From contig JAPPIK010000014.1 in the NCBI GenBank assembly GCA_028820655.1, forward strand, positions 271,079 to 335,078: 64,000 bases of DNA. The letters run 5' to 3'. This document shows, piece by piece, positions 2,207 through 57,409 of the stretch; positions within the stretch are counted from its first letter, which is position 1; the number at the start of each line of letters is the position of its first letter. This DNA is from Candidatus Poribacteria bacterium (lineage in GTDB: Bacteria > Poribacteria > WGA-4E > JAJDTR01). The position numbers and the translations under genes are program-made. The notes beneath the pieces were generated by a model. The model was given only the letters and a program-made list of their open reading frames with translations. It was not told the origin of the DNA and did not search any database.

Positions 2207-4264
<2,058 letters not shown>

Positions 4265-44170: not shown

Positions 44171-45613
44171 ATGACGGTGCCTGTCATCAACTGGCACATG
44201 CTGATGCCCGAATTGGTCATTGTCCTGACGTTTGTCATCGTGATGGTTTTTGACCTGTTCAAGTCAATCCGGAAGTCGATTCTCGCTTGGGTGACCATTA
44301 TCGGCAGCGCAATCGCGTTATGGGCATCCGTAGAAATGCTCCATGCAGGGGTGAACGGGAGCCAGTTCAACGGCATGTTGGCCGTAGATCGTTTTTCGAT
44401 GTTTTTCAAAATCATCTTCCTTGTGTCAACAATTTTAGTATCGCTAATTTCCATCAATTATTTGGACCGAGGAGATAAGCGGCAAGGGGAATACTACGTG
44501 TTAATCCTCTTGGCGACACTGGGCATGATGTTGATGGCATCTGGCAACGAATTGATTGTAGTTTTCCTCGGGTTGGAGTTGATGTCGCTGTCGTTGTATG
44601 TGTTGGCAGGATATTTCCGCTCCGTGCAGGTATCCAGCGAAGCCGGGATGAAGTATCTATTGCTGGGCGCATTCGCCAGCGGGTTCTTCCTATACGGCAT
44701 CGCGCTGATATACGGCGGCGCCGGGACAACGAGCATTCCCGAGATTGCCTCGGTACTGGAAGACGGAGAAAAATCTCCATTGATGCTCGCTGGGATGTTC
44801 CTGCTAATTGTGGGGTTCGGTTTCAAAGTGGCTCTTGTGCCGTTCCACCAATGGGCCCCCGACGTATACGAAGGCGCGCCAACCACAATCGCCGCTTTCA
44901 TTTCGGCGGGACCAAAGGCAGCCGGCTTCGCCGCATTTCTCAGGATTTTCACGAGTGCACTGGAGAGCCTCCAACCGGAGTGGATTGTCGTGATTGTCAT
45001 TCTCGCGGCGTTAACGATGACCGTCGGAAACGTGATCGCGACAGCTCAAAGCAACATCAAACGAATGCTGGCCTATTCGAGCGTCGCGCACGCCGGTTAT
45101 GTGCTGGTCGCGTTAGCGGCGGCTAACAAAGATGGCATTTCCAGCGCCATGCTTTACCTGCTCGTCTACTGCGTGATGAATATCGGCGCATTTGCCGCGG
45201 TTATCCTTGCGACAACCGAGGATGGCGAAAATCTCAAAATCTCCGACTACGCCGGACTCGGGTTTCGGAAGCCGCTGCTTGCGTTGTTCCTGTCCATCAT
45301 GCTAGTGTCCCTTGCAGGGTTTCCGCCCACAGCCGGCTTCGTCGGAAAGTTTTACGTGTTCCGTTCCGCCGTGGATGCGGGCCACATTTGGTTAGTTGTG
45401 ATCGCGGCGATCAATACCGCAATTTCAGCGTTTTATTATCTTCGCGTCGTTGTGGTGATGTATATGCAGGAACCTGACGAAGAACTCGAATATCACGCAT
45501 ACCCGGGTCTACTGGTATTTACGCTTCTTCTCGCTACAATCGGAGTCGTTCTGATTGGGGTATTGCCTTCGTATTTCTTGGGGCCCGCCCAAATTAGCAC
45601 ACAGTTCTTCTAG
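44171..45613 (+). CDS. nuoN: NADH-quinone oxidoreductase subunit N
   Basis: 480 aa antiporter-like subunit; N-terminal pattern typical of NuoN. Confidence 0.9.
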   Translation: MTVPVINWHMLMPELVIVLTFVIVMVFDLFKSIRKSILAWVTIIGSAIALWASVEMLHAGVNGSQFNGMLAVDRFSMFFKIIFLVSTILVSLISINYLDRGDKRQGEYYVLILLATLGMMLMASGNELIVVFLGLELMSLSLYVLAGYFRSVQVSSEAGMKYLLLGAFASGFFLYGIALIYGGAGTTSIPEIASVLEDGEKSPLMLAGMFLLIVGFGFKVALVPFHQWAPDVYEGAPTTIAAFISAGPKAAGFAAFLRIFTSALESLQPEWIVVIVILAALTMTVGNVIATAQSNIKRMLAYSSVAHAGYVLVALAAANKDGISSAMLYLLVYCVMNIGAFAAVILATTEDGENLKISDYAGLGFRKPLLALFLSIMLVSLAGFPPTAGFVGKFYVFRSAVDAGHIWLVVIAAINTAISAFYYLRVVVVMYMQEPDEELEYHAYPGLLVFTLLLATIGVVLIGVLPSYFLGPAQISTQFF

Positions 45614-45642: not shown

Positions 45643-45939
45643 GTGCCAAATGTATTAACAATGGCTATGTTTAAGCGGAGTCCGGAAGAGTGGAGCAGCC
45701 TTGGTCTCGTGATGATTGGAAGCACGCTTGTATTTGCAATCGGCATCGGATCCGGATTGGGTTGGTGGATTGGCGGGAAGTTGGGTAATCAAAAGATCGG
45801 GCTAATCATCGGGTTTGTCGTCGGAACCGCGGCGGGTTTCAGGGAGATGTTTCGAACGGTGTCGCGCTGGAATCGGCGGATGGAGGAACAGGATCGGACA
45901 AATCGAATCCATGAAGATGATTCGGGAGAGGGTTCATAA
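45643..45939 (+). CDS. atpZ: AtpZ/AtpI-family small membrane protein preceding ATP synthase genes
   Basis: Two Gly-rich TM helices 'LGLVMIGSTLVFAIGIGSGLGWWIGG' / 'IGLIIGFVVGTAAGF'; position upstream of atpI-atpB. Confidence 0.6.
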   Translation: MPNVLTMAMFKRSPEEWSSLGLVMIGSTLVFAIGIGSGLGWWIGGKLGNQKIGLIIGFVVGTAAGFREMFRTVSRWNRRMEEQDRTNRIHEDDSGEGS

Positions 45940-45940
45940 G

Positions 45941-46360
45941 ATGAGTTCTCGGTCCCCATTCGAAGTAGATGACAATTTTCTTCGGCAAGTCTATCGATTG
46001 ACGGTAGTGTTAGGTGTCATCGGTACGGTGATTCTCTGGACGGTTTACGGCACGCCGGAAGGGTTAAGTTTCGCGATCGGCGGCTTTCTCAGTTTAAGCG
46101 CGATTTTATCGTTGGAGTACGTCGTTCGCCGCTTGGTTAAACCCGGTGGTCCATCGCGAGCCAAACGTTTGATCGGGTTCATTTTATTGGGTAAATACAC
46201 GGTGATTTTTGGAGGGTTTTATCTGTTGATGAAGACGGATTGGCTAAACGTCTATTCCCTCGCAGCCGGAATTGGCGTGGTACAACTTGTGATTATCCTT
46301 AAAGCCGTCAAACTCATGACTGGCATTCTATTCAGCGACAAGACAACCAAAGATACTTGA
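45941..46360 (+). CDS. atpI: ATP synthase protein I
   Basis: ~140 aa, four hydrophobic segments, located between atpZ and atpB; ATG right after atpZ stop (alternative ATG 45911). Confidence 0.6.
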   Translation: MSSRSPFEVDDNFLRQVYRLTVVLGVIGTVILWTVYGTPEGLSFAIGGFLSLSAILSLEYVVRRLVKPGGPSRAKRLIGFILLGKYTVIFGGFYLLMKTDWLNVYSLAAGIGVVQLVIILKAVKLMTGILFSDKTTKDT

Positions 46361-46370
46361 TGACATTGCA

Positions 46371-47276
46371 ATGAAAAAACACTGTTTGCTTTTCTTTGTT
46401 ACGGTTTTCGTTCTGTTTGGAGTTGGATTCGATTTTGGGTTTGCGGCAGACGATGCCCATGATTCCTCACACGATACTCAGAGCGAAGGGGAACATGGCG
46501 GCGGCGGAGCCCATCCCCACTATTCTTGGCTGCATCCGTTGTCCAAAATCATTCCGAACCATATTATTCCGGAACCCCTCGGCTGGCAGCAGCCGGACCT
46601 GATCCTCAATGCCTATTTCGTAGTGTTGGTTATCACCATCCTTTTCTTTTTCGGGACGCGAAAGATGAAACGACTCCCCGAAGGCAGAGGACAGACTTTG
46701 CTGGAGTTGTTTGTCGGCGGATTGATAAACTTCTTTGGTGGGATTTTGGGTGAACACGGGAAAAAATATGTCCCGTTTGTCGGATCCTACTTTATTTTTA
46801 TCCTGTTCCTAAACTATATTGGTCTAATTCCCGGCTTTCTATCTCCGACAGCGGATTTGAACACGACGGTCGCGCTTGGTATTTCCGCGTTAATCGGTGT
46901 TCATGTCATAGCTATCAAGGAAAACGGGATCATCGGTTATTTGAAGCATTTTGTTGGCGATCCGTGGTGGCTTGCGCCTTTGATGTTTCCATTGCACATT
47001 ATCGGAGAAATTGCGCGCGCCGGGTCGCTAGCAATTCGGCTCTTTGGAAATATTTTTGGCGAGGAATCAGTCATAATCAACTTGACCATCTTAGGGCTTG
47101 CAGTTCCGCACATTTTCGGTATGATACCTTGGGCGCCAATTCAGGTGCCCATGCTGTTTTTCGGACTATTTGGCGGATTTTTGCAGGCGCTTGTGTTCTC
47201 GATGTTGACATCAATCTACATCGTTACGTTCCTTGAGCATCATGACGAAGAGCATGGTGCGGAGGCACATCACTAA
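46371..47276 (+). CDS. atpB: F0F1 ATP synthase subunit a with signal-peptide-like N-terminus and His-rich periplasmic extension
   Basis: Conserved Arg in 'IGEIARAGSLAIRLFGN'; N-terminal 'AADDAHDSSHDTQSEGEHGGGGAHPHY'. Confidence 0.9.
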   Translation: MKKHCLLFFVTVFVLFGVGFDFGFAADDAHDSSHDTQSEGEHGGGGAHPHYSWLHPLSKIIPNHIIPEPLGWQQPDLILNAYFVVLVITILFFFGTRKMKRLPEGRGQTLLELFVGGLINFFGGILGEHGKKYVPFVGSYFIFILFLNYIGLIPGFLSPTADLNTTVALGISALIGVHVIAIKENGIIGYLKHFVGDPWWLAPLMFPLHIIGEIARAGSLAIRLFGNIFGEESVIINLTILGLAVPHIFGMIPWAPIQVPMLFFGLFGGFLQALVFSMLTSIYIVTFLEHHDEEHGAEAHH

Positions 47277-47362: not shown

Positions 47363-47680
47363 ATGATTTATCTTGCAGTTTTAGCTTTCGGGGTGGCGCT
47401 CGGTTTGCCGATTGCGGTAATCGCGGCATCGACCGCACAGGGAAAGGCAACGAGTACCGCTCTTGAGGGCATTGCACGCCAGCCCGAGGCTGCACCCAGG
47501 ATTCAGGTAGCGATGATTATCGGTTTGGCTCTTATTGAGTCTCTTGTCATCTATTCGCTGCTTATCTTTTTCCTGTTGATGGGAAAACTCCCGGACGTTA
47601 CGCCGGCTGAAGGGGAAAAGGTTAGCCCGCTCGAGAAGATTATGCAAGCAGCGCCGAGCGAAGAAAGTCACGACCATTAG
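47363..47680 (+). CDS. atpE: F0F1 ATP synthase subunit c with ~25-aa C-terminal tail ending SEESHDH
   Basis: Hairpin with 'ARQPEA' loop and carboxylate in 'LALIESLVIY'; ggagg RBS. Confidence 0.9.
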   Translation: MIYLAVLAFGVALGLPIAVIAASTAQGKATSTALEGIARQPEAAPRIQVAMIIGLALIESLVIYSLLIFFLLMGKLPDVTPAEGEKVSPLEKIMQAAPSEESHDH

Positions 47681-47761
47681 AAAAACATACTGCATGAAAC
47701 GTACTGCGCGATCTTTGCGGTCGCGCGCTATGTTTCAGCGCAAACGACATTGCGAGTCATC

Positions 47762-48361
47762 ATGAAAAGATTTGGAAATTTAGCCTTACTCATCTGCATT
47801 AACATATTGATTGCGGCCCCGTATTCGTTTGCTGCCGGCGGAGAATCCGGAGGCGGCGGGCTGTTGGGCGCCATCGGACTCGACCCCAAGACAGTCATCC
47901 TACAAGTGCTGGGCTTTCTCGTGGTTCTGTCGGTGCTCTGGAAATTCGTTTTTAGCCGCGTCGGCGGACTGTTGGATGAACGACAGAACGAGATAAACTC
48001 GCGCATGGAAAAACTGGAGACGGACCAACAGGAGTTGGATCGGTTGAACGCCGAAACTCGTCAACGATTGAACGAGATTGAAGCGGAGGGACAAGCCAAG
48101 ATTCAATCCGCCATCAATGAAGGAAATGCCGAGAGACAGCGTATTCTCGATCAGGCGCGTCAAGAAGCCTCTGCCGAACTTGATAGAGCACGGGCGGAGA
48201 TTCAGCGCGAAAAAGATGAGGCCATCCTCGAATTGCGGAGCACTGTCGCCGAGGTTGCGATTGACGCGGCGAGCAAAATAATCGATCAAACGCTAGATGC
48301 CGAGAGACATCAGCACATTATCGATGAATCAATTCGCCGCCTGCCTTCACATAGCGCTTGA
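47762..48361 (+). CDS. atpF: F0F1 ATP synthase subunit b
   Basis: N-terminal TM then long charged coiled-coil (Q/E/R/A-rich); alternative TTG start 47750. Confidence 0.8.
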   Translation: MKRFGNLALLICINILIAAPYSFAAGGESGGGGLLGAIGLDPKTVILQVLGFLVVLSVLWKFVFSRVGGLLDERQNEINSRMEKLETDQQELDRLNAETRQRLNEIEAEGQAKIQSAINEGNAERQRILDQARQEASAELDRARAEIQREKDEAILELRSTVAEVAIDAASKIIDQTLDAERHQHIIDESIRRLPSHSA

Positions 48362-48501: not shown

Positions 48502-49041
48502 ATGAGAGATGTTCGGATTGCCAAACCATACGCGCAGGCGTTGTACGATGCGGCGGCGGAGCAGGATGCTTTGGATCGCATCGTGGAGGATGCCAACCAA
48601 GTCCTGAGCTTGGCGCAAGAATCGGAAGATTTTGAAGGGTTCCTGACCAATCCGATTCTGTCGCCGCAGTTCAAGAGCGAGATGTTTCAGCAGCTCCTGT
48701 CGGAATTCATTCATCCGCTCACTCTGAACTTTCTGTCACTTCTGGCATCGAAACAGCGAGAAAGGTTCCTCGTGGCAATCTTACGGGCATTTTTGGAACT
48801 CGTCGATTTGAAAGCGGGACGTCTGGTTGCGCAGGTGACGTCTGCGGCTCCGCTCAGCGAGGCGCAGAAAGCTAGTCTTGTACAACACCTCAGCGATTAT
48901 TCCGGTGCCGAAGTGAGACTTGATTTGAGCGAAGATAGTGAGATCAAAGGCGGAATTGTCGTGCGGCTAGGCGACACGGTATTTGATGGAAGCGTCACGA
49001 CACAGTTACGGCGGCTACGATCGCTGCTTGCTAGAGGATAG
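48502..49041 (+). CDS. atpH: F0F1 ATP synthase subunit delta (OSCP)
   Basis: 'YA.ALY..A' N-terminus and C-terminal 'IKGG..VR.GD...DGS' typical of delta. Confidence 0.8.
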   Translation: MRDVRIAKPYAQALYDAAAEQDALDRIVEDANQVLSLAQESEDFEGFLTNPILSPQFKSEMFQQLLSEFIHPLTLNFLSLLASKQRERFLVAILRAFLELVDLKAGRLVAQVTSAAPLSEAQKASLVQHLSDYSGAEVRLDLSEDSEIKGGIVVRLGDTVFDGSVTTQLRRLRSLLARG

Positions 49042-49091: not shown

Positions 49092-50621
49092 ATGGCAAGG
49101 GAAGTTAGACCCGATGAAGTTTCAAATATACTAAAGCAACAATTGCTGCAATTCAATCAACAAGTAGACGTGTATGATTCCGGGACGGTGTTGGATGTCG
49201 GTGACGGAATCGCTCGCGTGCACGGGCTTGCCAATGTGATGGCGAGCGAGATGATTGAATTTCCGAATGACGTATTCGGCATGGCTTTCAATTTGGAAGA
49301 GGACAACGTCGGTTGCGTGCTTTTCGGCGAAGACAAGCTGATTCACGAAGGCGACATCGCCAAACGGACCAATCGATTGCTTGAGGTGCCGGTCGGGGAG
49401 GAGTTGCTCGGTCGAGTCGTCAATGCGCTGGGGCAGCCGATCGACGGCAAAGGGGAACTCGGTACCAGCGAGACACTACCCGTGGAACGAAAGGGTTTGG
49501 GCATTGTGCAGCGTCAGCCTGTTAGCGAGCCGCTGTATACCGGTTTGAAAGCAATCGACAGCATGACGGCTATCGGGCGAGGGCAGCGTGAGTTGATCAT
49601 CGGTGACCGGCAAACGGGCAAAACCGCAATCCCAATTGATACAATCATCAACCAGAAAAACACCGACGTGTTCTGCATTTACGTGGCGATCGGCCAGAAG
49701 GGATCTACGGTTGCCCAGGTTGTGACAACGCTTGAGCAGCACGGCGCGATGGACTACACCATTGTTGTCTCGGCGCCTGCCAGTGAACCGTCGCCGCTGC
49801 AATATCTTGCGCCGTATACCGGCACATCCATGGGAGAATTCTTCCGTGACAGGGGGCAGCATGCGCTGATCATTTACGATGATCTAACCAAGCACGCTTG
49901 GGCGTACCGGCAGATGTCCCTGCTCTCACGTCGACCGCCGGGGCGAGAAGCCTATCCCGGCGATGTCTTCTACCTGCACTCAAGATTGCTCGAACGCTCG
50001 GCGAAACTGAGTGACGAATTGGGAGCCGGTTCATTGACTTCGTTGCCTATAATCGAGATTTTTGAGGGCGACTTGACAACATACATTCCAACCAACGTGA
50101 TTTCGATTACGGACGGACAGATATACCTAACGTCGGAACTGTTCAATCAAGGTGTCCGTCCTGCGATTGATGTCGGTACGTCGGTTTCCCGTGTGGGTGG
50201 GGACGCACAGACTAAGGCTATGAAAGCCGATGAGGTGGCAGGCACGCTGAAGCTGGATTTAGCTAGTTTCCGTGAGGTCGCCGCCTTTGCTCAGTTTGGT
50301 TCCGATCTTGATGCATCCACGCAATCGCAACTTCGCCGCGGAGAGCGATTGGTGGAACTGCTTAAGCAGCCGCAATACGCGCCTATGCCCGTCGAGAGGG
50401 AGATTGTCTCGATATTCTGCGGATCGACGGGATATTTGGACGACGTTGAAGTGGCAGATGTTGAAAGGTTTGAGTCCGAATTTCTTGCCTACATGGATAG
50501 AAATCATGAAGGACTTCTGAAGGAGATTGCAGAAACGGGTGTTTTGAGTGATGACCTTATTGAGAGTCTTCATGACGCGGTGAAGAGTTTCAAGGAGCAG
50601 TTCCAAGTGAATGAGGCATAG
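49092..50621 (+). CDS. atpA: F0F1 ATP synthase subunit alpha
   Basis: P-loop 'GDRQTGKTA', 'YDDLTKHA' and overall alpha signature; 509 aa. Confidence 0.97.
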
Positions 50622-50835
50622 AGGTGACGAGGTGAAACTAAAAATCATTCTGCATGAAGCGGAAGAGGGAGGATATTGGGCTGAAGTCCCGTCAATTGAG
50701 GGATGTGTGAGTCAAGGTGAGACGCTTGACGACTTGATTGAGAACATCTCTGAGGCGGTAGAAGGCTGTTTATCTGTGGATATCAGTGAACGCGATATCG
50801 GCGAGAAAGATACAGTCATGGAGATAGCCGTTTGA
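50611..50835 (+). CDS. hicB: HicB-family antitoxin (UPF0150 / RNase-H-like fold only, no DNA-binding domain)
   Basis: '[39 protein letters not shown]' matches HicB N-domain pattern; start ATG 50611 (overlapping atpA stop) or GTG 50632. Confidence 0.6.
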
Positions 50836-51038
50836 AATCCCTAACGGGAAAAGAGTTTTGCCGCTTATTGAATAAGAAGGGATGGGAATTGAAGCGTGTA
50901 AAGGGCAGTCATTACATTTTCGCCAAAGGTACGCCTTCTGCTCGAATCTCAGTTCCTGTTCACGGGAATAAGACTCTCAAGCAGGGCTTGCAGCGGCATC
51001 TTATGAAAATAGCTGGTATTGATGAAAGTGAATTGTAG
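50832..51038 (+). CDS. hicA: HicA-family mRNA interferase toxin
   Basis: 'LTGKEFCRLLNKKGWELKRVKGSHYIF...ISVPVH' with conserved catalytic His in GSH; TTG start overlaps hicB stop by 4 nt. Confidence 0.7.
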   Translation: MKSLTGKEFCRLLNKKGWELKRVKGSHYIFAKGTPSARISVPVHGNKTLKQGLQRHLMKIAGIDESEL

Positions 51039-51059
51039 CAAGGAGTTCAGGGGTTTATA

Positions 51060-51926
51060 ATGGCAACGTTACGAGAGATCAGACGACGGATTGCGAGTGT
51101 TGAGAACATCAAACAAGTAACAGAAGCGATGCGAGTGGTTGCAGCGGCGAGGTTACGCCGCGCCCAAGAGAACATCTTGGCGACACGGCCGTTCGCCGAG
51201 AAGTTTAACGCGATTTTGAGCCACTTGATTGCGCAGATTGAGAATCCCACCCATCCGTTGCTAGAGAATAGGGAATTAAAAAACGTCTGTCTCATCTCTA
51301 TCAGCGCCGATCGCGGATTGTGCGGCAGTTTCAATAGTAATGTGATTCGTACCACGACGGAGAGAGCGCAGCATTATCAAGATGCCGGTGCCGCCGTGAA
51401 GATCATCTGTGTAGGCAGACGTACCCGGGACTATTTTGCACGGCGGGACTATGAGGTCATCGCCGAATATGTCAACATATTTCGAGATCTCAAGTTCGAA
51501 TCCGCTGTGGACATCGTTCATGAATTTGAGCATCTTTATACTGCACTGCAGATTGACAGGGTAGAGGTAATCTACAATAACTTCAAGTCCGCTATACTGC
51601 AGACGGTGCTCGTTGAACAGCTATTGCCGCTTACCCCGGAAGCACCGACGGGTGACGAACTCTTTCTCGATTATCTGTATGAGCCGGGACAGGAGGAAAT
51701 CTTCCAGTCGGTGTTGGCGAAACACCTGAACATGCAGATGTGGAAGGTATTGCTGGATTCCAACGCCGCGGAGCAGGCGGCGCGGATGGCAGCCATGGAA
51801 AACGCAACACGTAACGCCACGGATCTGATTGACGAGTTGATTTTGCAGCGCAACCGGGCGCGACAAACCCAGATTACGACGGAGATCTCCGAGATTGTGA
51901 GCGGTGCAGCGGCATTGGAGGGTTAG
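51060..51926 (+). CDS. atpG: F0F1 ATP synthase subunit gamma
   Basis: 'MATLREIRRRIASVENIKQVTEAM' N-terminus and C-terminal helix 'ITTEISEIVSGAAAL'. Confidence 0.9.
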   Translation: MATLREIRRRIASVENIKQVTEAMRVVAAARLRRAQENILATRPFAEKFNAILSHLIAQIENPTHPLLENRELKNVCLISISADRGLCGSFNSNVIRTTTERAQHYQDAGAAVKIICVGRRTRDYFARRDYEVIAEYVNIFRDLKFESAVDIVHEFEHLYTALQIDRVEVIYNNFKSAILQTVLVEQLLPLTPEAPTGDELFLDYLYEPGQEEIFQSVLAKHLNMQMWKVLLDSNAAEQAARMAAMENATRNATDLIDELILQRNRARQTQITTEISEIVSGAAALEG

Positions 51927-51927
51927 T

Positions 51928-53553
51928 GTGCTAGTAATGTTAAAAACTTTTGTCCGTTCTTGTATTGTTTTCACGTTTTTGGCTATTGGGTGCTTGTCCG
52001 CATTCGGTCACGGCGACGTTCTCCCTCTGTTGGAGGATGTCAACAATGACGGCGTCGTGAACATCTTGGACCTCGTCATTGTGGCAAACGCCTTGGGGCA
52101 GCCCGTGGATCGGGATATGGAGCAGAATCCGGATGTCAATCGCGATGGCGTCACTAACATCTTGGATCTCGTTCGAGTTGCCAACCGATTAGGCGAACGC
52201 GCGGCAGTTGACAACTCAACCTATCACGATTTTCAGGACTACATTTTCAACAAGAGTTGTACCGCAAGCTACTGTCACGCAGCTCCGACTAACGCCGGAA
52301 ATTTAAACCTCACAAGCGGTGTTTCATACGAAGATTTGGTTGGCCGCGTGCCGCAAAACCTTGCGGCGGCGTCTGCCGGGATGAAGCGCGTTGATCCGGG
52401 CAATCCAGACAATAGTTTTCTGTTGACGAAGCTCGTAGGTCCGTCCACTCCGGCAGAAGGAGGCCGCATGCCCTTGGGGGCGGGACCGCTCCATAGCGGA
52501 AAGATAGATGCCATTCGAAAATGGATTGCCGCGGGAGCACCTCGGAATGAAAAACTAACCGGCATCGGCGATCTAAGCCTGTTACGCGACCCGCTTGAAT
52601 CCTTTGAACCGCTCCCGCCGCCGCCGCCCGGAGAAGGTTATCAGCTTCATATGCCGGCTTTTAGAATTGAACCCGGTACGGAGCGGGAAGTCTTCTACGA
52701 TATGCAGATCACAGACGCAGCGGGACAGCCGTTGCAGGAGGATATCTTCGTCAACAAGTACGAGATCGCGTATCCGACCGGCAGTCATCACTTCATCCTG
52801 TATCGGTTGACTGAAAAGGCGTTGGAAGATGACCTACGTAATGTCGGAGTGACACCGGGAGTCGGGGTGAATACGCAAGATAAGTTCCGAGTGTTGGATC
52901 CTGCGAATCCGCAAGCGCTCGGAAATTTTGGCAAGCACCGCGTCTACAACACGGGCACCCAAACCGGCGAAAAGACGGTTTTTCAATTTCCCCAAGGCGT
53001 GGCTCTGCGGCTTGCGGGAGACACAATTTACGACCTGAACGCACATTTCGTGAATCTGTTGGGCACGGAAGCGATCGAGGGAGAGGTTTACGTCAATTTC
53101 TACACCATCCCTCCGGAAGCGGTTGAGCATGAAGCAGTGGAACTTTTCTCCGCCAATACCGACATTTTTGTTCCGCCGGGAACAACGCGTGTGGCAAAGA
53201 GGGACGAGACCGTGAGGGAGGAGATTGAACGCCGCGGTAACGATCCGAACACCGTGTTGAATCTCCTTATGATTACGTCTCATATGCACCGACACGGCGA
53301 ATTGTTTGAGATTTTTCAGATGTCAACGGGGAGTTTGCTCCATCGAAGTCTGGCTTACGACGATGCGCCCATCACGGTGTTCGACCCGCCGTTGGTTCTC
53401 GGCGCGGACGACGGCATCACCTACGAATGCACACATAATAATTATGATCGGGATGTTCCACTTACTTTCGGATTTACGTCCGAGGATGAGATGGCAATAA
53501 TTATGGGGTATTACTATCCCACAACCGAGAGTGTGGATACCTCAAGTGAGTGA
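51928..53553 (+). CDS. Secreted multidomain protein: signal peptide + 2 dockerin-type Ca-binding repeats + Planctomycete-cytochrome-C-like (PSCyt1-like) domain with Cx4CH + PHM/DBH-like type-2 copper monooxygenase domain
   Basis: Repeats 'DVNNDGVVNILDLV' / 'DVNRDGVTNILDLV'; 'IFNKSCTASYCH...GNPDNSFLLTKLVG...MPLGAGPL...IRKWIAAGAP'; Cu sites 'GSHHF'...'NAHF' and 'HMHRHG' ... 'SEDEMAIIMGYYYP'; start GTG 51928 or ATG 51937. Confidence 0.55.
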   Translation: MLVMLKTFVRSCIVFTFLAIGCLSAFGHGDVLPLLEDVNNDGVVNILDLVIVANALGQPVDRDMEQNPDVNRDGVTNILDLVRVANRLGERAAVDNSTYHDFQDYIFNKSCTASYCHAAPTNAGNLNLTSGVSYEDLVGRVPQNLAAASAGMKRVDPGNPDNSFLLTKLVGPSTPAEGGRMPLGAGPLHSGKIDAIRKWIAAGAPRNEKLTGIGDLSLLRDPLESFEPLPPPPPGEGYQLHMPAFRIEPGTEREVFYDMQITDAAGQPLQEDIFVNKYEIAYPTGSHHFILYRLTEKALEDDLRNVGVTPGVGVNTQDKFRVLDPANPQALGNFGKHRVYNTGTQTGEKTVFQFPQGVALRLAGDTIYDLNAHFVNLLGTEAIEGEVYVNFYTIPPEAVEHEAVELFSANTDIFVPPGTTRVAKRDETVREEIERRGNDPNTVLNLLMITSHMHRHGELFEIFQMSTGSLLHRSLAYDDAPITVFDPPLVLGADDGITYECTHNNYDRDVPLTFGFTSEDEMAIIMGYYYPTTESVDTSSE

Positions 53554-53644
53554 AAGAAAAATTCGGAAAGTTGCAATCTAAACGGTTGTGAAACTATTCT
53601 TAACGATTGATGTGCCAAGTAATTTAGTCAAAGGAGGACAACCA

Positions 53645-54466
53645 ATGGTACTTGGACCAAGAGGGACAATTCTCGTCATTCTGATGGCGTTGATAGCTTT
53701 GAGCGGGTGTGAGCAAGGCACCAATATCTTGGCGGACGCGCTGTCGCCCGAGGATCCGGAAATAGAGGCGACGCCGATTGAGGAAATATCGATGGAGGAC
53801 CCTCCATCCGAACCCATTATGGAAACTGTAGACGCGGAGTCTGTACCGGTCAAAATGGTGTGGTTAGTCGACTATCCGCTAGGCGGAAAGGAGGAGTATG
53901 TTGCATGGATCGCGTCCGTAGCGCCAATGCTGCTAGCTCCGGAAGAGCTTAATCGGGCGGCGTCTTACGACAACGTTGACGGATCCAATCCGCACCGCCT
54001 TGTCGAGTTCGAATTTGACAGTTTTGCCGATCTCGCGCACTATCTGAACCGTCCCGAAATTGCTGCGGTCTCTGCCGATATGCCGAATCACACCAGTAGC
54101 GCGAGTACGCACATATTTATCCAGCGCGGCGATTATTCGAAAAACGAGAGCACGAGCCGTAAGGTTAAAACCGTTTACTTAGTTGACTATCCGCTTGGAG
54201 GAAAAACTGAGTACCTGGAATGGATTGCCGCTATAGCGCCGATGCTGCAAGCCCCCGAAGAGGTAAAGCGGATAGCATCTTACGACAACTATTATGGCGT
54301 AACTCCACACCGGTATGTCGAGTTTGAGTTCGATAGCTATGAAGAAGCGAATACGTACCAAGAACTCCCGTACGTGCAGCAGCATGTTAATGCGGAGTTG
54401 CCTAATCGAACCAGCCGCACGTCTGTCCTGACCTTTGAGTTGCGATCCGATTACGTCAACGAATAG
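53645..54466 (+). CDS. Lipoprotein with two tandem ~100-aa repeats (dimeric alpha/beta-barrel, ABM/Dabb-like by pattern)
   Basis: aggagga RBS, lipobox 'ALSGC'; repeat 1 'VKMVWLVDYPLGGKEEYVAWIASVAPML..PEE..RAASYDN...PHRLVEFEFDS', repeat 2 'VKTVYLVDYPLGGKTEYLEWIAAIAPML..PEE..RIASYDN...PHRYVEFEFDS'. Confidence 0.5.
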   Translation: MVLGPRGTILVILMALIALSGCEQGTNILADALSPEDPEIEATPIEEISMEDPPSEPIMETVDAESVPVKMVWLVDYPLGGKEEYVAWIASVAPMLLAPEELNRAASYDNVDGSNPHRLVEFEFDSFADLAHYLNRPEIAAVSADMPNHTSSASTHIFIQRGDYSKNESTSRKVKTVYLVDYPLGGKTEYLEWIAAIAPMLQAPEEVKRIASYDNYYGVTPHRYVEFEFDSYEEANTYQELPYVQQHVNAELPNRTSRTSVLTFELRSDYVNE

Positions 54467-54581
54467 TCGAGGGCGTTGTCGTTACGCCGTAGGCATTAAC
54501 TAGGAAGAGATGCTGGAAGCGGATGATCGGGCTAGTGTTTACAGCGCGAGTAGGAGGAGACTTTTGAGCACATCGAAGCCG

Positions 54582-54950
54582 ATGGTCATCAATCAGTCGG
54601 AGCAGTCTTGGGAGGGCTGGGATGATGCCGAACTCGCGGACAAAAGTGCGATTCGCTGGAAAATCCTTATATCCGGCGAACGCGGATTAGTCACCGGTAT
54701 AGCGGAGTTTCCGGTCGGCACTCGACTTCCCCTTCACCACCACGAACCCCCGGAGACCTATTACATCGTCAGCGGGAAGGGAACCATGGAGATGGACGGT
54801 CACAAAACAGACATCGGACCTGGATCGGCGGTCTACATCCCGTCCAATGCGAAACACGCTGTATGGTGCACGGGAAATGAACCATTAGTATTCGTATTTT
54901 CCTTCGCGAGTGATCGATTCGACCAGATAGTCTATCACTTTGACGAATAA
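54582..54950 (+). CDS. Cupin domain protein (RmlC-like cupin)
   Basis: Cupin motifs 'G.RLPLHHHEPPETYYIVSGKG' and 'G..VYIPSNAKHAV'; alternative TTG start 54564 after aggagg. Confidence 0.7.
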   Translation: MVINQSEQSWEGWDDAELADKSAIRWKILISGERGLVTGIAEFPVGTRLPLHHHEPPETYYIVSGKGTMEMDGHKTDIGPGSAVYIPSNAKHAVWCTGNEPLVFVFSFASDRFDQIVYHFDE

Positions 54951-54984
54951 GCGATTCGCGGAGGGGGCGCCAAAAAATCAACAC

Positions 54985-55293
54985 ATGCTTTACGATGTTG
55001 ACAAACAGATTCAAGAGGCAATCGATCGGGGAGACTTTAAGGATCTGCGCGGAAAGGGAAAGCGGCAGGAGTTAGAAGAGAACGCTTATGTTCCGCGCGA
55101 AACTCGGATTGTTAACCAGATGCTTAAAGAAAACGGATTTGCGCCGCGTTGGATAGAGGTAGACAAAGAAATCCGTGCCGAGCGTGAACAATCCGGAAAG
55201 CTGCTGCGGAATATCAAACGGCGGCGCCGACATTTAGAAGCAGCGATTCACGCCCAACCACTCGACATCGACAGGGTACGTCGAGTTTTTTAA
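54985..55293 (+). CDS. DUF1992 (DnaJ-homolog-subfamily-C28-like) protein
   Basis: 'IQEAIDRGDFKDLRGKGKRQELEENAYVP...IVNQMLKENGFAPRWIE' matches DUF1992 pattern; alternative TTG start 54940. Confidence 0.5.
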   Translation: MLYDVDKQIQEAIDRGDFKDLRGKGKRQELEENAYVPRETRIVNQMLKENGFAPRWIEVDKEIRAEREQSGKLLRNIKRRRRHLEAAIHAQPLDIDRVRRVF

Positions 55294-55391: not shown

Positions 55392-56927
<1,536 letters not shown>

Positions 56928-57001: not shown

Positions 57002-57409
57002 ATGCTTGAAAGAAGATTTCACCTCGAAATCCGAACACCGCAGAAACTCATATATGATGGCGACGTAAGCAGCGTCAAAGCGCCCGGGGAACTGGGCTCA
57101 TTTGAAATCCTTCCCGGTCACATTCCTTTTTTGACGGTTTTGGAAACGGGCGAGATTCGCATCCGAGAGACTGATACACCCCAGTCACTCGCGGTCAGCG
57201 GCGGGGTTTTCGAGGTATTGCGAACAGGGGTTACGGTATTGTCCGACACGGCGGAATGGGCGCATGAAATTGATGTTGAACGGGCAGAGACAGCTCTTCA
57301 ACGCGCTCAAGAGCATCTGGCTTCGGGAGATTCGGGGATCAACCGAGGACGCGCGGAAGCCGCATTGGAGCGCGCCAAGAATCGGGTAAAGGTCGCCAAT
57401 TCCTCGTAA
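57002..57409 (+). CDS. atpC: F0F1 ATP synthase subunit epsilon
   Basis: 'SVKAPGELGSFEILPGHIPFLT.L..GE' beta-sandwich signature and C-terminal helical hairpin. Confidence 0.9.
   Translation: MLERRFHLEIRTPQKLIYDGDVSSVKAPGELGSFEILPGHIPFLTVLETGEIRIRETDTPQSLAVSGGVFEVLRTGVTVLSDTAEWAHEIDVERAETALQRAQEHLASGDSGINRGRAEAALERAKNRVKVANSS

Follow-up and report, generated by a model that had tools for sequence, protein, structure and literature searches.

The window that we analyzed, a 64,000-nucleotide (nt) stretch of DNA from a Candidatus Poribacteria bacterium (GenBank assembly GCA_028820655.1, contig JAPPIK010000014.1, positions 271,079 to 335,078), carries two small genes, hicB and hicA, between atpA and atpG, the genes for the alpha and gamma subunits of F1Fo ATP synthase. 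We found that these genes encode a genuine HicB-HicA toxin-antitoxin pair, and the best overall explanation for their location is, with good probability, that one Poribacteria lineage carries in its atpA-atpG spacer a compact type II HicBA module of Class 2, as a passenger cassette. This cassette would be an old selfish or accessory element, under purifying selection where it is intact and repeatedly disabled elsewhere, and it would have been exchanged between related species with a cassette encoding a 23S rRNA intervening-sequence (IVS) protein, through recombination within the conserved atp genes on either side. An initial annotation of the same DNA had recognized the pair and had taken its position as a sign of either a very recent insertion or a regulatory tie between the toxin and ATP synthase stoichiometry. 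The pattern described below fits an old chromosomal toxin-antitoxin cassette whose toxin has been inactivated repeatedly; it does not fit a recent insertion or a part of ATP synthase.

Identity of the HicB-HicA pair

Profile scores, predicted folds and the catalytic histidine together confirm the pair that the initial annotation had placed at 50611-51038. In hidden Markov model searches, both reading frames scored above their Pfam thresholds, and chance matches would not reach such scores. HicA matched PF07927 (HicA_toxin) with 66.3 bits (E 2.5e-18, cut-off 27), its residues 6-63 covering profile positions 1-58 of 58, and HicB matched PF15919 (HicB_lk_antitox) marginally, with 31.5 bits against a cut-off of 27, as well as UPF0150 (PF21748) with 28.3 bits against a cut-off of 27.3. 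NCBIfam gave no match for either protein. About 8000 HicB homologues at E < 1e-4 have the same Pfam matches; nearly all of them are 67 amino acids (aa) long, and they span many phyla and one archaeon.

The catalytic motif of HicA, G25-S26-H27, is intact. H27 is invariant, along with W18, R22, G25, R38 and H44, in an alignment of 42 HicA sequences, and it aligns with the GS(A/H) position of Burkholderia pseudomallei HicA in the solved structures 4c26/6g26, which the window protein matches in sequence with an E of 1.5e-3. The AlphaFold2 model of HicA is alpha-beta-beta-beta-alpha (helix 6-15, strands 19-24, 27-31 and 38-42, helix 47-61; predicted local distance difference test [pLDDT] 82), and its best Foldseek matches in the PDB are 6g26_E/F (TMq 0.68-0.70), 1whz (0.76) and 4c26. 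HicB is modeled as beta-beta-beta-alpha-beta, a partial RNase-H fold (strands 2-9, 15-18 and 26-29, helix 32-46, strand 62-66; pLDDT 71). Foldseek matches 1-12 for this model are all HicB structures (TMq 0.66-0.74), and the HicB sequence matches 6g1n/6g1c with an E of 3e-5. By analogy with known systems, HicA would be an RNase that arrests growth, acting when free as an H27-dependent, ribosome-independent mRNA interferase, and HicB would neutralize it by direct binding.

A DNA-binding domain is missing from HicB, which stops at residue 67, immediately after the last strand; no further Pfam domain or structural element was found in it. The bare partial RNase-H domain was read correctly in the initial annotation, but it is not special to this locus, since the lack of a DNA-binding domain defines the commonest HicBA classes. 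Class 2 comprises pairs in the order hicB-hicA whose HicB is 57-94 aa long without a DNA-binding domain and whose genes are closely linked or overlapping (bioRxiv 10.1101/2023.12.08.570793 / PMC10865869), and the window pair has each of these features of the Gerdes classification. It further shares with Class 2 a HicA in the 60-85 aa range with a fold like that of double-stranded RNA-binding domains, and a HicB with a partial RNase-H fold. A helix-turn-helix (HTH) or ribbon-helix-helix (RHH) domain at the C-terminal end, which marks the HicB of Classes 3 and 4, is absent. The module itself is thus no different from other Class 2 pairs and is unusual only in its location between two F1Fo ATP synthase genes; in our literature search, no paper placed HicBA inside the operon for ATP synthase.

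The best structural matches were to classical, autoregulated HicAB systems, namely those of Escherichia coli K-12 (6hpb), B. pseudomallei (6g26), Yersinia pestis (HicA3B3, 4p78) and Streptococcus pneumoniae (5yrz). In the classical systems, HicB has an HTH or RHH domain at its C-terminus and acts as repressor of its own promoter, whereas the window HicB stops after its RNase-H-like domain; the E. coli-type gene order is also reversed relative to that of the window, where the pair has no evident upstream promoter region. Several stand-alone Thermus thermophilus proteins are similar in size, including the single-domain UPF0150/HicB-like proteins TTHA1756 (2yzt), TTHA0281 (2dsy) and TTHA1013 (1wv8), which are ~67-87 aa long and have no DNA-binding domain, and a 70-aa HicA-like protein (1whz). 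These are only weakly similar in sequence to the window proteins (E 0.15-0.6; 0.036 for 1whz), and they do not lie in an atp operon.

Gene anatomy and expression of the junction

The four genes of the junction all lie on the forward strand. Upstream, atpA (49092-50621) encodes the 509-aa alpha subunit (Pfam ATP-synt_ab, 273 bits, plus N- and C-terminal domains) and ends in a TAG stop codon at 50619-50621; its last ~8 codons vary among relatives with the type of cassette downstream. A Shine-Dalgarno-like GAGGTGA (50621-50627), which shares the final base of the atpA stop and is kept in the cassette alignment, precedes hicB. The longest hicB reading frame is the 74-aa one of the initial annotation (50611-50835), whose ATG at 50611 overlaps atpA by 11 nt. 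This frame exists, but it is almost certainly an upstream extension of a 67-aa gene that starts at the GTG at 50632 and ends at 50835. We favor the GTG because GAGGTGA precedes it, because two relatives have a different start triplet at the same codon (ATG in L008, TTG in L017), and because 67 aa is both the usual length among homologues and the length called in contig JAPPFS010000377 of GCA_028823835.1 (L001), where the whole atpA-hicB-hicA-atpG region is identical. This start would place hicB 10 nt past atpA, with no overlap.

The toxin gene, hicA (50832-51038, 68 aa), begins with a TTG that overlaps the hicB stop by 4 nt, as TTGA, in line with what the initial annotation had described. Its Shine-Dalgarno motif, GGAG (50820-50823), lies within the 3' end of hicB, 8 nt ahead of the TTG. 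Both small genes thus start with non-ATG codons, and each has its own Shine-Dalgarno motif; the overlap suggests that they would be translationally coupled. A 21-nt spacer (51039-51059) separates hicA from atpG (51060-51926), which encodes the 288-aa gamma subunit (Pfam ATP-synt, 321.7 bits). This spacer keeps the native ribosome-binding region of atpG, which reads AGGGGTT at 51049-51055, compared with AGAGGTT in cassette-free relatives. Given that the cassette fills the whole ancestral spacer of ~2-17 nt and leaves the atpG ribosome-binding site intact, ATP synthase expression appears to tolerate its presence.

The small genes are co-oriented with the atp genes, as had been noted, and are tightly packed among them. 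A consensus scan found no sigma-70-like promoter and no terminator-like hairpin on the forward strand between 49874 and 51570, Rfam returned nothing meaningful in 49500-52000, and there was no meaningful palindrome near the hicB start. The 10-nt and 21-nt gaps, together with the lack of a promoter- or terminator-like site, make read-through from the atp promoter the likeliest source of expression, and we infer that hicBA is likely transcribed as part of an atpB-E-F-H-A-(hicB-hicA)-G mRNA. Dependence on the atp promoter, which the initial annotation had derived from the missing DNA-binding domain, would hold at this locus, but it is not a property of this type of HicBA, which elsewhere usually has upstream spacers of 50-250 nt.

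Distribution and age of the cassette

We measured the gap between atpA and atpG at 81 junctions, those of the window and of 80 Poribacteria loci centered on atpG (L002-L081). The hicBA cassette was present at seven of them (the window, L005, L006, L007, L008, L010 and L017), and a gene for a PF05635 protein, or its frameshifted copy, was present at 11. Several further junctions hold heptamer footprints or MITE-like inserts (resembling miniature inverted-repeat transposable elements), and all remaining junctions are tight (2-40 nt). Tight junctions are the rule in Poribacteria, with a gap of 2 nt in one large clade, where the atpG Shine-Dalgarno motif lies inside atpA, and of ~17 nt in another. 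The closest relative of the window by flanking genes, L002, whose AtpG is 99% identical, does not have hicBA.

The seven hicBA copies align as DNA from the atpA stop to the atpG Shine-Dalgarno motif and occupy the identical site. Their identity to the window cassette is 92% in L005 and L006, 87% in L007, 86% in L008, 84% in L010 and 74% in L017, and pairwise synonymous divergence (dS) among the cassettes is 0.24-0.78. Four of the seven are disabled: L007 has a 7-nt deletion in hicA, L008 has an extra base in an A-run of hicA, and L010 has lost one base of hicA, a lesion also found in contigs L169-171. In L017, hicB carries a +1 frameshift, and HicA reads GSYH instead of the invariant GSH (H27 to Tyr). 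A full-length hicB stands beside the frameshifted hicA in L007 (7582-7785), L008 (7572-7775) and L010 (7574-7777). Intact pairs are found in the window, in L005 and L006, and in five further contigs (L164-168). In the window both reading frames are full length and free of frameshifts, and the pair is probably still functional in this genome.

Purifying selection has acted on both genes. The ratio of nonsynonymous to synonymous divergence (dN/dS) is 0.06-0.16 for intact copies of the two genes and 0.06-0.13 when the window is compared with L005 and L006; taken gene by gene, it is 0.06 for hicA and 0.06-0.27 for hicB.

We also considered and rejected two further signals. An 18-nt imperfect direct repeat (50580-50597 and 51028-51045, 78% identity) resembles a target-site duplication, but it is probably due to chance, because the AtpA residues past its left copy (F-K/Q-x) are kept in relatives with another cassette or none; the real left border of the insertion is at ~50607. 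Similarly, a count of 21 HicB clusters (>87% identity) against four HicA clusters (>88%) could be taken as a sign of toxin loss, and we set it aside because hicA genes with a TTG start often go uncalled. In L164-L168, for example, an intact 68-aa TTG-start hicA that overlaps hicB (2722-2928) is absent from the public gene calls. Since gene callers often skip such genes, protein-database counts understate HicA relative to HicB in this subfamily.

A second cassette and other inserts in the spacer

In 11 relatives (L002, L003, L004, L009, L016, L022, L026, L028, L030, L031 and L062), the same spacer is filled by a gene of ~150 aa for a 23S rRNA IVS protein (23S_rRNA_IVP, PF05635; 61-62 bits), located for instance at 7478-8000 in L002 and 7452-8000 in L022. 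Like hicBA, this cassette is small, co-oriented with the atp genes and without a promoter-like region. The IVS protein, a four-helix bundle, is however unrelated to HicA and HicB, and the hicBA cassette is missing the inverted heptamer arrays that flank the IVS-protein gene (TACGTAA/TGCGTAA on the left, TTACGCA/TTACTCA on the right). The arms of these arrays are 24-25 nt long and 80-88% complementary, and in the atp mRNA they would form a long stem around the reading frame, like the rRNA intervening sequences that are excised by RNase III. The arrays have no match anywhere in the window, which also holds no IVS-protein gene and no second hicA or hicB. A literature search for the IVS protein yielded nothing of use.

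The IVS-protein cassette has its own signs of decay, with two copies in L028, one of them degenerate, and a frameshifted copy in L004. In L011-L013, L015, L019-L021, L025 and L029, the gap is 31-213 nt long and still holds the heptamer arrays, joined in L029 and L012 by internal fragments of the IVS-protein gene; we interpret these gaps as deletion footprints of the cassette. Other small sequences have landed in the spacer as well. Five loci from a different Poribacteria clade (L039, L054, L055, L056 and L059) have a MITE-like element with the hairpin TTGTAGGTTGGGTTGAACGGAGTGAAACCCAACAAATGTAGGAG in a gap of 178-202 nt, and L036 and L066 have other tandem heptamer arrays (GCGTTATCT..., AACTGAT/AACTGAC). 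The atpA-atpG spacer is, on this evidence, a general sink for small insertions.

Proposed exchange of cassettes between lineages

In a neighbor-joining tree of AtpA+AtpG+AtpD, the window groups with the IVS-protein carriers L002-L004, the other hicBA carriers in its clade (L005, L006, L007, L008 and L010) are interleaved with the IVS-protein carrier L009, and L017 falls in another clade. This scatter requires at least three replacements within eleven genomes. In flanking DNA, the window shares 88-96% identity with L002-4 versus 80-90% with L005/6; the final ~40 nt of atpA are the only part whose affinity changes with cassette type. Between the window and L005, synonymous differences were found at 24 of 88 sites in the cassette, compared with 109 of 198 in the adjacent atpG (Fisher p = 2e-5). 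The cassette value resembles that for atpG between the window and L002 (53 of 200 sites).

The simplest reading of these patterns, and the one that we infer, is that homologous recombination within the conserved flanks carries old cassette alleles from one lineage to another. We would extend this reading only tentatively, to the idea that the spacer is a long-lived cassette slot in which two or more unrelated selfish cassettes, each without a promoter, take turns as alleles across species, recombining through the atp arms and living off the transcription of the operon, with small repeats landing there too. If that is true, the hicBA allele is a natural example of a HicBA pair without a DNA-binding domain that is expressed without autoregulation, and the same would apply to a pair in a Caldilineaceae dcw cluster (L083, described below).

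The HicBA subfamily in other genomic contexts

We surveyed the contexts of this subfamily at 80 metagenome loci and 2 genome loci whose HicA is 62-76% identical to that of the window. At 79 of these 82 related loci, hicB is followed by hicA in a unit of 407 nt. Among 55 distinct upstream contexts, 39 were co-oriented with the pair and 16 divergent, the median co-oriented gap was 99 nt, and six gaps were within 30 nt. Tight embedding is therefore the exception. Outside the window, the subfamily usually has an upstream spacer of 50-250 nt, often with a divergent neighbor, and the neighbors are heterogeneous, including a PIN gene, a glycosyltransferase, an acetyl-CoA synthetase and the dcw cluster. 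We had considered whether Class 2 hicBA might be a general hitchhiker in operons, and we rejected this idea on the small number of close contexts, the 16 divergent ones and the mixed neighbors.

A second case in an essential operon was found in a Caldilineaceae metagenome-assembled genome (MAG; GCA_019637695.1, JAHBVG010000004; L083). There, at 3801-4207, a 69%-identical HicA and a 67-aa HicB are encoded within the dcw (cell-division and cell-wall) cluster; murC/AAA_33 lies on one side and murB-ddl-ftsQ-ftsA on the other, and the gaps are 17 and -17 nt.

Weighing the alternatives

Several points weigh against our preferred explanation, that hicBA is an old passenger cassette. The HicB model is of only moderate confidence, with residues 50-67 below a pLDDT of 65, and by the account of bioRxiv 10.1101/2023.12.08.570793 Class 1 and 2 HicBA systems had yet to be tried in experiments; toxicity and neutralization are extrapolated from Classes 3 and 4. 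The scan for promoters used a sigma-70 consensus that may not fit Poribacteria promoters, and a promoter in the 3' end of atpA is possible. The tree behind the proposed exchange is an unbootstrapped neighbor-joining tree of three flanking proteins, which may have undergone recombination of their own, and the contrast in synonymous divergence comes from only 88 synonymous sites in the cassette. Finally, hicB stays under purifying selection even beside a broken hicA, at the dN/dS of 0.06-0.27 given above. It may therefore act beyond neutralizing its partner in cis, and the pattern suggests that the antitoxin is selected as an orphan, for instance because it counters HicA paralogues encoded at other sites in the genome.

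Of the other explanations, a role in defense survives best, although we consider it unlikely. Under this explanation, the pair would act in abortive infection or otherwise against phage, with the atp site merely giving it constitutive transcription, and it is compatible with the passenger cassette that we prefer. A defense role has been proposed for HicA contexts generally (bioRxiv 10.1101/2023.12.08.570793), and toxin-antitoxin systems feature in genome studies of sponge symbionts. However, gene and Pfam annotation of the window revealed no defense or mobile-element genes near hicBA, and the frequent loss of the toxin in relatives speaks against strong selection.

It is also possible, although we think it quite improbable, that the window pair is a silent relic, non-functional or unexpressed and simply free of lesions so far. 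The frequent decay in relatives and the weak start codons, GTG and TTG, would be in keeping with this. Against it, neither reading frame is truncated and no invariant residue is missing, the dN/dS values relative to L005 and L006 are low, and both genes have Shine-Dalgarno motifs in an operon that is expected to be strongly transcribed.

We regard the regulatory tie raised in the initial annotation as very improbable. It would have HicA, made from the atp transcript, cleave atp or other mRNAs and thereby tune subunit stoichiometry or couple energy to growth arrest, so that a site between the alpha subunit (three copies) and the gamma subunit (one copy) would be adaptive. The tight embedding and probable co-transcription of the pair, the purifying selection on both genes and the retention of the cassette at the exact site in several species are all consistent with such a tie. 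Yet hicBA lacks the conserved presence and position of an F1Fo ATP synthase component: it occurs at only seven of 81 junctions, and four of those seven carry a disabled toxin or antitoxin. Moreover, the nearest relatives have an unrelated gene or nothing in the spacer while their atp genes are normal, relatives give no sign of a conserved, lineage-specific atp component, and elsewhere the HicBA subfamily sits in unrelated contexts.

Least credible of all is a very recent insertion confined to the window strain or species, for which the lower GC of the cassette (0.46-0.47 versus 0.50-0.57 in the flanks) and its absence from L002 could be cited, but which our comparison of atpA-atpG junctions contradicts by showing an old and patchy insertion, with six other species-level genomes carrying homologous cassettes at exactly this position (92-74% DNA identity) and enough time for independent inactivating mutations to build up. 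Any recent event may instead have been the re-acquisition of an old allele by recombination, and not a de novo insertion.

Wider context of the atp operon

The AtpG protein of the window is 96-99% identical to proteins from Candidatus Poribacteria MAGs, which derive from sponge symbionts. Directly upstream of the atp operon lies nuoN (44171-45613), on the same strand and ~30 nt from the reading frame for ATPase_gene1. The genes for respiratory complex I and for ATP synthase together make up a single long block of one orientation. Pfam matches identify, all on the forward strand, ATPase_gene1 (45643-45939), an atpI-like gene (within 45815-46360), atpB (46371-47276), atpE (47363-47680), atpF (47750-48361) and atpH (48502-49041) ahead of atpA. 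In L017, atpH (793-1332) lies ~4.7 kb upstream of atpA (6031), which points to another insertion, between the delta and alpha subunit genes.

The initial annotation had assumed an uninterrupted atpA-G-D-C order, and this proved wrong, as atpD (55443-56927) and atpC (57002-57409) follow 3.5 kb downstream of atpG, behind four unrelated, co-oriented genes (51937-55293) that we identified from Pfam, the L001 gene calls and synteny in the 80 loci. They are a dockerin/Cu2_monoox_C-like gene (ending at 53553), a double Dabb-like gene (53588-54466), a cupin gene (54510-54950) and a DJC28_CD gene (54940-55293), all, like atpD and atpC, on the forward strand. Most of the 80 Poribacteria loci also have a DJC28_CD homologue between atpG and atpD, which means that the phylum has long had its beta and epsilon subunit genes apart from the remainder of the operon. 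Throughout the phylum, therefore, the F1 genes are divided after gamma, in a way reminiscent of the cyanobacterial atp1/atp2 arrangement.

Implications

The HicBA module described here is ordinary. Classes 1 and 2 are the most prevalent HicBA classes, and how they are regulated has been posed as a question (bioRxiv 10.1101/2023.12.08.570793); the window pair bears on it as a natural case of a HicBA without a DNA-binding domain and apparently without room for a promoter of its own. The junction also illustrates that an essential, conserved operon can hold an insertion-tolerant spacer in which unrelated small cassettes replace each other. With its repeated decay of the toxin and an antitoxin that stays under selection, the cassette offers a compact and datable instance of toxin-antitoxin turnover in uncultured symbionts. 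It serves, in addition, as a warning against reading function from position, given that embedding in a bioenergetic operon here implies no bioenergetic role.

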